Source: Actinomycetales bacterium
GTDB taxonomy: Bacteria; Actinomycetota; Actinomycetes; JAJZTN01
Direction of reading: 5' to 3'
Length of the DNA stretch: 64,000 bases
Assembly (NCBI GenBank): GCA_051960855.1
Contig: JBQCDV010000091.1
Location: 56,347 to 120,346 of the forward strand
This document shows, piece after piece, positions 4,509 to 60,772 of the stretch; position 1 is the stretch's first letter, and each line of letters opens with the position of its first letter. Below the pieces are notes generated by a model. That model saw nothing but the letters and a program-made list of their open reading frames with translations, ran no database searches and had not been told where the DNA came from. The translations under genes were made by a program, and so were the position numbers.

Positions 4509-5003
4509 CTATCCGCGGAACGGCGGAGGCGGTGGTGCCAGTCGTGCGCGCGGGCAGTCCGCCAGCGTCAGCCCCCCGAAGCCGAGGGCCTCGTCGCACA
4601 GCGTCTCGACGGTCCAGCCGTGCTCGCTGCCGAACCTCGTGACGGTCGCCCGGTAGATCGTGATCTCGTACCGGGTCGGTGTGCCGTACGCGACCTGCAT
4701 GGTGCCGATGAGCTCGGCGCCGCTGTCGTCGGACGGCCCGTGAAAGGGCCGGTCGTAGCGGCTCCACAGCGACGGCTCGGACTGCCAGCAGCCGCCGTTG
4801 TGCACGTCTCGCAGCGCGAGCTCCACGAGGACCGCCCGCGCAGCCTCCTCGGGCAGGACGGCGGCCGGGCGGATCACCTGCGTGAGCACGGCCTCGTCGT
4901 ACGCCGCCGCGATCAGGTCTGCGTCGTTGCTCGCCACCCTCTGCGCATCGACATCGCCGCGGCGCGCCTTGAGTCCACGGGTTGCGGGCGACCGGCTGGT
5001 CAC
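4509..5003 (-). CDS. hypothetical protein
   Basis: 164-aa ORF between the oxidoreductase and DUF3145; no recognisable motif; start uncertain. Confidence 0.35.
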   Translation of the reverse strand: MTSRSPATRGLKARRGDVDAQRVASNDADLIAAAYDEAVLTQVIRPAAVLPEEAARAVLVELALRDVHNGGCWQSEPSLWSRYDRPFHGPSDDSGAELIGTMQVAYGTPTRYEITIYRATVTRFGSEHGWTVETLCDEALGFGGLTLADCPRARLAPPPPPFRG

Positions 5004-56831: not shown

Positions 56832-56880
56832 CGGCTCATCGCTCCGTCACGCCGGCGACGGTAGCGGCCGGCGCGCTGCT

Positions 56881-57540
56881 GTGTGGCAGCATCGCGATGT
56901 GTCCGACGGCTACGGCAGCGACCAGCAGAGCCGGGAGCGCGATCTGGTCGCGTACTACGACGCGGAAGTCGCCGATCGCGCCCACCGCGGCCTTGCCCCG
57001 CAGCGGGAAGCGGCGCGGACGGCGTTCGTCGATCTGCTTGTCAGCGAGGGTCGCCACCACCTGCTCGAGGTCGGCTGCGGGCCCGGTCGCGACGGGCAGG
57101 CGTTTGTCGATGCTGGCCTGGGCTACGTCGGAGTGGACCTCTCGCCAGCCTCCGTCGCACACTGCCGCCGTGACGGCCTCGACTGCCGGGTCGCGAGCGC
57201 GCTGGAACTGCCGTTCGGTGACGGTGAGTTTGAGGCGGCCTGGACGATGAGCACGCTGCTCCACCTCCCGAACGCCGCTGTCGGGCGTGCTCTCGGTGAG
57301 CTGGTGCGGGTTGTCGCCCCCGGCGCGCCGATTGGCGTCGGGGTGTGGGGCGGGGATGACGTGGAGGGAGTCGACCCCTCGATGAGCGATGCCGCCTTCG
57401 GGCCGGCGCGGTTCTTCAGCCTCCGCAGCAGCCAGACGTGGCGGCGGCTGCTCGCCGAGCATGCCGACGTCGAGCGGTGGGAGCCGTGGGTCGACGCTCG
57501 CGGCGTGACCTACCAGTTCGCGGTGCTCCGGACGGGCTAA
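56881..57540 (+). CDS. class I SAM-dependent methyltransferase
   Basis: LEVGCGPGRDG motif I. Confidence 0.8.
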   Translation: MWQHRDVSDGYGSDQQSRERDLVAYYDAEVADRAHRGLAPQREAARTAFVDLLVSEGRHHLLEVGCGPGRDGQAFVDAGLGYVGVDLSPASVAHCRRDGLDCRVASALELPFGDGEFEAAWTMSTLLHLPNAAVGRALGELVRVVAPGAPIGVGVWGGDDVEGVDPSMSDAAFGPARFFSLRSSQTWRRLLAEHADVERWEPWVDARGVTYQFAVLRTG

Positions 57541-58108
57541 GAGGCAAGCTCGCGGAAGGCACTGGCCGTGGTACCGCTGCTCGGCCCCATCGAGAACAGC
57601 TACACCAAGAGGCTCGGCTGTTCCTGACCAGGCGTGAGGCTGTGGCGGCGCCTTCTGGGCTGTCACCCTCCCAGCCGCGCCCGGTGAGCATCGACATCAC
57701 GAACCAGCCCTTCACGGCGAAGTTCAGTGTGTTCTTCGAGTTCACCATGCCCGCGGTGATGACGCCCGCGGACTTCATGAGCATGACGAAGTTGTCGAAG
57801 TGGTAGTTGGTGACGACCCGGAACAGTGCGCGCTCGAGCTTTTCGTAGGCGATGGGGATGCGCTCCTCGTCGACCTTGCGAGTCTCCGGGTCGCGGCCCG
57901 AGAGCTCACTGACGATGCTCGACGCCTTGCCACGGCTGAAGCCGACGAGGCCAGCCACGCGGACGATGTCGCTGTACTCCGGGTCGTAGAGATCCTCGGC
58001 CTCGTCCTTCAGCCAGCTAATGATGAGCGTTGCGAAGTGCCTGGGCGTCGACGACCTCGACGCCCCGAACAGCAGGAGATACCCGGAGTGGGCTCGCAAT
58101 TTGACCAT
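57416..58108 (-). pseudogene. probable gene remnant; only the N-terminal about 150 aa (57660-58108) look coding
   Basis: Lower GC; C-terminal 80 aa low-complexity and overlapping the methyltransferase 3' end by 125 nt. Confidence 0.3.
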
Positions 58109-58138
58109 GCCGAGAGGTTGATTCGGCAGGCGCGAGCT

Positions 58139-58481
58139 TAGATGTCTCGCTCTTCAGGCGGCAGTAGCGCCTGCATGCGCTCGACAGCATCGGCGAGGGG
58201 CTGCAGGTCCTGGTCGATCACCGCTTGGACAATCTCGGGGTTGGTTGCGAAGGGTGGGCAACGAAGTCCCGCATGCCGGCGATCTCGCGCCACCTCATCG
58301 CCGGCTCGGCGTCGGTTGTCTCGGCGCTGAGCGCCTTCACCGCTTCAGCGATCTCGAGGAGCCGCATGGCCACGGCGTCCATCACAATCAGCCACGCTGA
58401 TCGGTCTGCTGCAGGTGTGAATGGGATCGACGTGATTGCCGCCAAAATGTCGTCGAGGGCCGTTGCGTCGGATCGGCTCAC
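58139..58481 (-). pseudogene. hepT: HepT (DUF86) toxin of a HepT/MNT TA pair, frameshifted near the C-terminus
   Basis: …IAGMRDFVAHP then, in -1 frame, FATNPEIVQAVIDQDLQPL… reconstitutes the HepT GMRNxxxHxYF motif and C-terminus; GTGA overlap with the MNT stop. Confidence 0.55.
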
Positions 58482-58879
58482 AGTGGAAGCAGGTCCTTCG
58501 CCGCCCGGGAGCGCACGCGCTCCTTCAGCCCGCTGCGGGGGACCAGGTCGACTGGCACGCCAAGGAGACCCTCCGCCTCGTGCTGGATGCCGACGATGTC
58601 GATGATGCTGGTACCCGGAGGAAAGTCGACCAGGATGTCGACGTCGCTGCCCTCGTGATCGTCGCCACGCGCAGCACTTCCGAAGATCTCCGGGTTCGTG
58701 ACGCCGTGACGGCGCAGCAGATCGAGCAGCTCGCCACGGTGGTCCGCCACACGGCGGCCGGTTGGGCCGCTGAGGGGCTTGCGGATCGGCGCCGCCATGT
58801 CGGCCAGCATGTCGCGTCGAGCCTCCCAGTGCGTCACGATGTCGGCGGCGAGCTCCTTGATCCGCATGTCGATCCGCAT
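58478..58879 (-). CDS. mntA: MNT-type minimal nucleotidyltransferase (MntA antitoxin)
   Basis: GSAARGDDHEGSDVDILVDF NTase motif. Confidence 0.8.
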   Translation of the reverse strand: MRIDMRIKELAADIVTHWEARRDMLADMAAPIRKPLSGPTGRRVADHRGELLDLLRRHGVTNPEIFGSAARGDDHEGSDVDILVDFPPGTSIIDIVGIQHEAEGLLGVPVDLVPRSGLKERVRSRAAKDLLPL

Positions 58880-58982
58880 GTCGGAGCCGACAGTCGCCTC
58901 CTCCTTGGCCCACTTCGACTTCAGCCGCTCGCTGATCTCCTCCTCGGACCCGACGGTGGCGTCGTCGAACTCGTCGTCGATA

Positions 58983-59201
58983 TCACGCCGGCTTCAGGTA
59001 CACGAACGGCTCTTGGCGACGGGTGGCGAACCGGGCCAGCACCTCCTCCCGCAGCCACAGGTTTCGGGCGAACCCCTCGGCGGCGCCGGGGAAGTCGGCG
59101 GCGTAGGTGTGGTGGTGGGCGGTGTCGACGCTGACGAACAGCGCCGCGGCGACGTGCTCGATGGTCCAGATGGGGACCGAGAGGTCCAGGTGCGTGGGCA
59201 T
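58983..59201 (-). CDS. hypothetical small ORF upstream of the MNT/HepT pair
   Basis: 72-aa frame; no motif; may be non-coding. Confidence 0.2.
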   Translation of the reverse strand: MPTHLDLSVPIWTIEHVAAALFVSVDTAHHHTYAADFPGAAEGFARNLWLREEVLARFATRRQEPFVYLKPA

Positions 59202-59335
59202 GCACCTGGTGGTCCGCGGACGCCTCGAGGGCGCAATCGCCGCACGCACCGCGGCCCCCGCCAGGGGGATTCCGGGGGAAATCCTGGCGGGGGCCGGGGA
59301 TCTGCGCAGGTCACGGCCCGTGAGGGCCGGTCCTG

Positions 59336-60772
59336 TCAGATGTCGTAGTAGAGCTCGAACTCGTGGGGGTGGGGACGCAGCCGGATGGGGTCGACCTCGT
59401 GGGTGCGCTTCCAGTCCACCCACGTCTCGATGAGGTCGGGGGTGAAGACATTGCCCTCGAGCAGGTAGGCGTTGTCAGCCTCCAGGGCCTCCAGCACGGC
59501 GGGCAGGGAGCCCGGCACCTGCTGCACCTGGGCGTGCTCCTCGGGGGGCAGCTCGTAGAGGTCCTTGTCGACCGGCTCCGGCGGCTCGATCTTGTTGCGG
59601 ACGCCGTCGAGACCGGCCATGAGCATCGCGGAGAAGGCGAGGTAGGGGTTGCAGGACGGGTCGGGCACCCGGAACTCGATGCGCTTGGCCTTGGGGGAGG
59701 TGCCGGTGACCGGGATCCGGACGGCGGCCGAGCGGTTGCGCTGCGAGTAGACGAGGTTGACGGGAGCCTCGAAGCCCGGAACCAAGCGGTGGTAGCTGTT
59801 GACCGTCGGGTTGGTGAAGGCCAGCAGGCTGGGGGCGTGCTCGATGAGGCCGCCGATGTACCAGCGAGCGGTGTCGGACAGCCCGCCGTAGCCGCGCTCG
59901 TCGAAGAACAGCGGGTCGCCGTCCTTCCAGAGCGACTGGTGGGTGTGCATGCCCGAGCCGTTGTCACCGAAGATCGGCTTCGGCATGAAGGTGGCGCTGT
60001 GGCCGGCCGCCCACGCGACGTTCTTGATGATGTACTTGAACAGCATCATCTGGTCGCCGGAGTGCAGCAGCGTGTTGAAGCGGTAGTTGATCTCGGCCTG
60101 GCCGGCCGTGCCGACCTCGTGGTGCGAACGCTCGACGTTGAGACCGGCGGCCTGCAGGGTGAGGACCATCTGGTCGCGCAGGTCGGCGAAGTGGTCGACC
60201 GGGGCGACCGGGAAGTACCCGCCCTTGTACGGGGTCTTGTAGCCGCGGTTGGGGCTGCCGTCCGGCTCGGTCTCGCGGCCGGTGTTCCAGGCCGCCTCGC
60301 GGGAGTCGATGAAGTAGTAGCCGGCGTTCTGACGGGTCTCGAAGCGGACGCTGTCGAAGACGTAGAACTCGGCCTCGGCGCCGAAGTAGGCGGTGTCGGC
60401 GATGCCGGTGCCCGTGAGGTAGGCCTCGGCCTTGGCCGCGACGTTGCGCGGGTCGCGGCTGTAGGGCTCGTCGGTGAACGGGTCGACGATGGAGAAGTTC
60501 ATCGCGAGGGTCTTCTCGCGTCGGAACGGGTCGAGGAACGCGCTGGCGGGGTCCGGCACGAGCTTCATGTCCGACTCGTGGATCGCCTGGAACCCGCGGA
60601 TCGAGGAGCCGTCGAACATCAGGCCCTCGGCGAAGGTGTCGGCGTCGAAGTACTCCGCCGGGGCGTTGAAGTGCTGCATCACACCCGGCAGGTCACAGAA
60701 GCGGACGTCGACGAACTTCACGCCCTCGTCTCGGATGTAGCGCAGGGCTTCCTCTGCGTTGCTGAACATCAA
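59336..60772 (-). CDS. glnA: glutamine synthetase type I (GlnA1)
   Basis: 478 aa; GS-I motifs incl. adenylylation-site region NLYELPPEE. Confidence 0.95.

Follow-up and report, generated by a model that had tools for sequence, protein, structure and literature searches.

A HepT/MntA-type toxin-antitoxin module with a HepT pseudogene downstream of glnA in an Actinomycetales genome

When chromosomal toxin-antitoxin (TA) modules decay into remnants and orphan antitoxins, the toxin is generally inactivated first and the open reading frame (ORF) of the antitoxin persists; this order of loss is expected for addiction modules, because a cell that still has an active toxin dies if the antitoxin is lost. 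Among type VII modules, HepT/MntA is exemplified by SO_3166/SO_3165 of Shewanella oneidensis (Yao et al., 2020; PMC7641770). MntA is marked by the motif GSX10DXD and HepT by the motif RX4HXY; in the characterized system the RX4H portion constitutes the RNase site, and MntA oligo-AMPylates the motif tyrosine, which neutralizes HepT (PMC7641770).

The locus described here lies in a stretch of 64,000 nucleotides from an Actinomycetales bacterium (hereafter the window), and it resembles the Shewanella pair in several respects: two small genes overlap, with the minimal nucleotidyltransferase (MNT) gene first; the MNT carries an exact GSX10DXD motif; the second gene belongs to the PF01934 family of HepT proteins, and its intact relatives carry RX4HXY (R-DFLA-H-H-Y); and the module is found on mobile DNA. 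Unlike its Shewanella counterpart, the HepT gene of the window is a pseudogene with four indels, from which the tyrosine of the AMPylation site and the preceding histidine have been deleted and in which the C-terminus is out of frame. With a probability of roughly 0.85, we read the locus as a type VII HepT/MntA pair that came from a TraA-relaxase mobile element and decayed beside glnA, so that the toxin is dead and the antitoxin is likely an unconstrained relic.

The MNT and HepT genes and their setting

The MNT ORF (Table 1), in which the sequence FGSAARGDDHEGSDVDILV is an exact GSX10DXD, scores 51.8 bits against Pfam NTP_transf_2 (cut-off 21), 30.3 bits against Pfam Polbeta and 93.8 bits against PADLOC PDC-S09; its product is deposited at NCBI as MGN6687125.1, from an "Actinomycetales bacterium" metagenome-assembled genome (MAG), and is 86-89% identical in amino acid sequence to the MNTs of Nocardioides and Nocardioidaceae loci. 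Homology to the 109-aa MntA of related loci (designated here by L numbers) begins in the window at the ATG at 58811 (MLADMAAP...), one codon upstream of the ancestral MNT start, and the DNA upstream of 58806 is unrelated to the upstream DNA of the relatives. The closest intact relatives (L085-L090, L012, and L008) encode an AbiEi-MNT fusion of 371-383 aa, and the window MNT was considered as an N-terminal truncation of such a protein; this was rejected because stand-alone MNTs of ~109 aa with corresponding starts exist beside an intact HepT (L002, L001, L007, L009, and L010). The match between these starts and that of the window indicates that the window MNT is full-length for the stand-alone form.

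The stop codon of MNT (TGA, 58480-58478) overlaps the GTG start of HepT (58481) in the sequence GTGA, and the two genes form an adjacent, co-oriented, overlapping operon with MNT upstream. The same GTGA junction occurs in L012, L001, L002, L007, L008, L009, and L010, and an equivalent ATGA in L085. HepT itself is divided between two reading frames, which when joined encode 114 aa. The 87-aa product of the first frame, identical to NCBI MGN6687124.1 (P0002 in our protein set), scores 30.3 bits against the Pfam HepT-like profile PF01934 (cut-off 23.5); the joined product scores 44.9 bits and covers the profile to its end, the C-terminal part adding 14.6 bits. For both genes, the family match greatly exceeds what chance would give. 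The 37 C-terminal codons align to the HepT C-termini of the relatives, and a protein search with the joined sequence returned 92 homologues, all with PF01934, of which the closest intact one is 77% identical in amino acid sequence. Many "homologues" of 79-87 aa appeared to share a truncation, an interpretation that was rejected since, with the exception of the window product P0002, these are gene calls from an internal methionine (MDAVAMRLL...) and contain no frameshift.

A preliminary description, made from the window sequence, had named the MNT motif, the GTGA overlap, a HepT that leaves its frame after ...RDFVAHP, the continuation to 58139, and a joined product of 114 aa, and each of these was found as described; its assignment of the module to the HepT/MNT (type VII) class with a frameshifted toxin is likewise supported by the Pfam scores, the motif, and the overlap.

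Table 1. Positions of the MNT and HepT genes, their motifs and lesions, and neighbouring features in the window.
Feature	Coordinates	Strand	Details and basis
glnA (glutamine synthetase); 3' side borders the island	59336-60772	minus	translation; Gln-synt Pfam match in the L085 ortholog; tblastn
MNT/MntA-type minimal nucleotidyltransferase ORF	58478-58879	minus	133 aa from ATG 58879; Pfam, PADLOC, homologues
GSX10DXD catalytic motif of MNT, intact	58681-58637	minus	GSAARGDDHEGSDVD; motif as defined in PMC7641770
HepT pseudogene, frame A	58218-58481	minus	87 aa; GTG start 58481, premature TGA 58220-58218; VSRSDATALDD...IAGMRDFVAHPSQPTPRLSKR, then stop
12-codon out-of-frame patch in HepT	58389-58424	minus	bounded by +1, -2, +1; net zero
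RX4H(XY) active-site motif, interrupted by the 4-nt deletion	58252-58271	minus	alignment with relatives
HepT C-terminal 37 codons, other frame	58139-58251	minus	FATNPEIV...ERDI; reads FATNPEIVQAVIDQDLQPLADAVERMQALLPPEERDI to stop TAA 58141-58139
Remnant of the 5' end of a 318-aa gene	58023-58082	plus	60 nt, MSVAKCLGVDDLDAPN...; blastn to L012 7436-7496 (95%), L002, L007, L008
Fragment related to DUF262/GmrSD-type proteins, no intact gene	57541-58020	minus	homologues, two with PF03235 (DUF262/GmrSD N-terminal domain)

The stretch from 57450 to 58650 has a GC content of 63-65%, compared with 72-74% in the flanking chromosome, which is consistent with horizontally acquired DNA. Within it, ~703 bp of a 318-aa gene has been deleted relative to L012, and only 60 nt is left. 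The homologues of the DUF262/GmrSD-type fragment are all short (81-217 aa), and because all of them are fragments, the window sequence is probably the remnant of a type IV restriction gene. Taken together, the 60-nt remnant, this fragment, and the low GC content indicate that the TA pair shares a decayed island with other remnants. In the relatives that retain the 318-aa gene (L012, L002, L007, and L008), it is the next gene after HepT and convergent to it; it has no Pfam or PADLOC match. The called ORF of 230 aa at 57416-58108 is a chimera, the middle part of which resembles the short DUF262/GmrSD-type proteins. Farther along, an ORF at 56881-57540 (plus strand) has methyltransferase matches (Methyltransf_25, E = 1.4e-14); the gene caller of the public per-run assemblies chose instead an ORF of 208 aa on the opposite strand (56836-57666, minus).

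Toward glnA, the 530 nt that separates it from MNT has no counterpart in related loci. This interval contains a 72-aa ORF (58983-59201, minus strand; MPTHLDLSVPIWTIEHVAAALFVSVDTAHHHTY...) that looks like an excisionase-type helix-turn-helix protein; neither this ORF nor the chimeric 230-aa ORF has a Pfam or PADLOC match. Just downstream of the glnA stop codon, a 17-nt inverted repeat (94% complementary, 17-nt loop) at 59249-59299 probably forms the glnA transcription terminator; apart from this hairpin, the repeat scan returned only short repeats at chance level. Around the MNT/HepT locus, promoter and terminator scans detected no sigma-70-like promoter or terminator, and Rfam and tRNA scans found nothing.

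Lesions in HepT

The genes of the window were aligned at the DNA level with the intact genes of four reference loci, which are 87-91% identical to the window in nucleotide sequence: L012 (a Nocardioidaceae MAG), L085 (a metagenome contig), L001 (Nocardioides cremeus), and L002 (N. glacieisoli). These four agree with one another, and relative to them the window HepT carries four indels: an extra C at 58425, within a short C run; loss of CG after 58407 (58407/58406); an extra C at 58391; and loss of ACTA between 58253 and 58252 (CACC-ACTA-CTTC). The last three lie outside homopolymers. The first three enclose the 12-codon patch, which reads PFTPAADRSAWL where the HepT family has RSHLQHGPISVE; the scrambled patch includes the segment SHLxHG, whose H, L, and G are at least 90% conserved in an alignment of 27 homologues. 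These three indels were missed in the preliminary description because they jointly restore the frame. Their zero sum could mean that the open frame of HepT was under selection for some time, the chance of its arising by accident being ~1 in 3.

The fourth indel falls in the active-site motif. In the window the sequence runs R-DFVA-H-P and then shifts frame, where the relatives read R-DFLA-H-H-Y-F and the intact HepT homologues all read IAGMRDFLAHHYFATNPEIV; the deletion of ACTA removes the His-Tyr that follows RX4H and puts the last 37 codons out of frame. All four close relatives have the deleted His-Tyr, as do at least 90% of the 27 homologues; the window gene has no intact RX4HXY. Judged from this alignment, the ancestral HepT had the complete motif, which the present gene has lost. 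What had been taken for a frame change of one nucleotide in a CCC homopolymer is thus a 4-nt deletion, and the CCC at 58254-58252 is the junction made by that deletion: the relatives read CACCACTAC there, and the ancestral sequence contained no homopolymer. Nor would a one-nucleotide repair, which the preliminary description had put forward for testing, be expected to yield a working or toxic HepT, since the joined protein of 114 aa would still lack the tyrosine and one further residue of RX4HXY and would retain a scrambled patch of 12 residues across near-invariant positions. HepT is therefore a pseudogene in the sense that it carries frame-disrupting lesions relative to intact orthologs that are reproduced in independent data (see below), and from these lesions its product is predicted to be non-toxic.

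Related loci, probable loss of constraint, and alternative readings

A block consisting of a TraA-type relaxase gene, the MNT (or AbiEi-MNT) gene, HepT, the convergent 318-aa gene, and an HTH_3 regulator is conserved and intact in L012, L002, and L008, and is also held, with frame breaks, by L007; this TraA-bearing block is a conjugative or integrative element. The window, L003, L004, L006, and L085 have the module immediately downstream of glnA. The tail of TraA is kept between glnA and MNT in L006, and in L085 the 3' end of glnA (~160 nt) occurs twice, at 1512-1672 and 4713-4873, on either side of a 3-kb island that contains AbiEi-MNT, HepT, and an SRA-HNH nuclease; this duplication suggests that the glnA 3' end is a site-specific integration site. 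A second glnA 3' copy of the kind seen in L085, which would have marked an att duplication, was sought in the window and not found, the only similarity being a weak one to a GS-like gene near 49.4 kb.

Decay was tallied over 15 distinct close loci, including the window. Both genes are intact in seven (L012, L085, L001, L002, L007, L008, and L009); HepT is degraded or lost and MNT is open in five (the window, L003, L005, L006, and L010); and both genes are degraded in three (L004, L011, and L013). HepT is thus degraded or lost in 8 of the 15, and none of the 15 has an intact HepT without an intact MNT. The lesions differ from locus to locus: L003 has an N-terminal frame change, L005 (an isolate genome) retains ~14 HepT codons, L006 has several indels and a truncation, and L010 has a 1-nt deletion and a truncation. 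HepT is intact where it adjoins an intact TraA relaxase (L012, L002, and L008), and most of the glnA-adjacent chromosomal copies are degraded.

Selection was assessed by counting, among the window and the four reference relatives, the changes seen in a single sequence at sites identical in the other four. On the window lineage the ratio of nonsynonymous to synonymous changes is 9:2 for MNT and 13:2 for HepT; on the terminal branches of the four relatives, pooled, it is 4:13 and 10:18, respectively (Fisher test of window versus relatives: p = 0.0056 for MNT and p = 0.0017 for HepT). From codon content, 74-76% of changes are expected to be nonsynonymous under neutrality, and the window agrees with this. 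For MNT, pairwise dN/dS is 0.20-0.45 between the window and its nearest relatives and 0.05-0.15 among intact pairs. These results are suggestive of a loss of purifying selection on the window lineage; the MNT looks unconstrained because its 9:2 matches the neutral ratio and differs from the 4:13 of the relatives. On these counts, which are small (11 substitutions in MNT and 15 in HepT) and polarised with four outgroups only, the window MNT is most likely an unconstrained relic awaiting a disabling mutation rather than a maintained gene, and weak purifying selection may still act on it. As a counterpoint, the ORF, the catalytic motif, and the start codon of MNT are all intact, which a relic would keep only by chance or if its decay were recent.

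The intactness of MNT leads to the alternative that survives best, although it is unlikely: that the toxin is dead but MntA is selected as a functional orphan antitoxin, for example for "anti-addiction" through AMPylation of the HepT of incoming related elements. In its favour, the ~330 nt of MNT aligned with the four relatives contains no indels, compared with four in the adjacent HepT, and GSX10DXD is preserved; an open MNT beside a degraded or lost HepT recurs in L003, L005, L006, and L010, and within the same group of bacteria, intact and closely related HepT/MntA modules travel on elements that bear a relaxase. Against these points stand the neutral-like 9:2 of the window MNT, significantly unlike that of the relatives; the similar totals of lineage-specific change in the two genes; the replacement of the original upstream region by DNA in which no promoter-like site was found; and the decay of MNT, too, in three relatives. 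The proposal in the preliminary description that the toxin was inactivated and the antitoxin retained accordingly stands in part: inactivation of the toxin is real, and MNT has kept its ORF and motif, but the substitution counts do not bear out retention by selection. It is similarly doubtful that selection keeps, at least for a time, the MntA genes that have outlived HepT in the five loci, as anti-addiction immunity towards conjugative elements with a related HepT/MntA; if it did, the 3' region of glnA would be a place where such elements land repeatedly and become domesticated and disarmed.

A sequencing or assembly artefact, in which a homopolymer miscall would hide an intact HepT in the true genome, as the preliminary description had considered, is much less probable still. 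The window does derive from a MAG, and for one indel, the inserted C at 58425, the surrounding sequence is a short run of C. This explanation, however, requires four separate indels, among which the -4 (ACTA), the -2 (CG), and the +1 at 58391 are outside homopolymers, while the adjacent 330 nt of MNT has none; the CCC at the frameshift arises from the deletion itself; and the nonsynonymous excess within HepT fits real decay. In addition, separate assembly of each of four runs (SRR31761938, SRR31761990, SRR31762020, and SRR31761993) gave contigs with 100% identity to the window over 967-2106 nt, and the same 87-aa HepT is encoded on contigs of all four. The number and placement of the indels and the full agreement of the four assemblies make a sequencing error very unlikely. 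The four accession numbers neighbour one another, and a single study or site is their probable origin, so that the runs vouch for the sequence and not for separate populations. That HepT is still produced, whether through a programmed ribosomal frameshift at ...CAC CCT TCG... or as a protein that functions in two pieces, has a negligible probability: the 37 C-terminal codons do remain open and 100% readable in the other frame, but an open frame of that length is unremarkable at ~65% GC, the recoded product would lack the RX4HXY tyrosine and its N-terminal patch would still be scrambled, and programmed frameshifting is rejected because the junction has no X XXY YYZ slippery heptamer and HepT is in a single frame in all intact relatives.

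Under the preferred reading of toxin-first decay, a mobile element with a TraA relaxase brought the module in, and what is left of it occupies a decayed island of lower GC content next to the 3' side of glnA. Motifs and family membership suggest that in the ancestral module the HEPN RNase HepT would have cut RNA and MntA would have neutralized it by oligo-AMPylating the RX4HXY tyrosine. HepT was then killed by the three indels that scramble 12 N-terminal residues together with the 4-nt deletion that takes out His-Tyr and shifts 37 codons, the toxin being lost first and the antitoxin later. The present locus most likely does nothing, and counts of active toxin-antitoxin or defence systems in this genome should leave it out. 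The entry NCBI MGN6687124.1, where the product is given as a normal "HepT-like ribonuclease domain-containing protein," needs a pseudogene flag; beyond annotation, the importance of the locus is slight.

Relation to known systems

Against the NCBIfam equivalog profiles, the MNT scores 32.5 bits (MntA_antitoxin, NF047752) and HepT 20.5 bits (HepT_toxin, NF047751), both below the cut-off of 60, which places the two proteins in a divergent actinobacterial subfamily, with neither a close ortholog of the studied pair.

The type IV system AbiE, which consists of the antitoxin AbiEi and the nucleotidyltransferase toxin AbiEii, is touched on by relatives of the module (L012, L085-L090, and L008) in which an AbiEi-like region is fused to MNT. 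The fusion is in-frame and paired with HepT in L012 (5182-6333), L085 (1889-3004), and L008 (3902-5035), and is conserved at 66-88% identity across these lineages; its AbiEi part scores 295 bits against PADLOC AbiEi and 30.4 bits against Pfam AbiEi_4. The fusion combines an AbiE antitoxin module (type IV) with an antitoxin of type VII, and a text search of the literature returned no paper obviously describing such a fusion. The window MNT, however, lacks the AbiEi part, and the partner of the fusion in the relatives is HepT and not an AbiEii/DUF1814 toxin; AbiE is relevant to the locus as context only.

The closest likeness is to the chromosomal remnants of TA systems. As in these, the toxin of the window is dead, the antitoxin ORF is open, and the pair sits in a degraded island with gene fragments; the pattern recurs in related genomes, with five loci in which only HepT is degraded, three in which both genes are, and none in which only MNT is. 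Repeated, toxin-first, and found mostly in glnA-adjacent copies, it is an expected illustration of the decay of an addiction module after a mobile element has become fixed in a chromosome. Nothing notable separates the window from such remnants: the locus is a known type VII module in a commonplace toxin-first decay and a textbook example of it.
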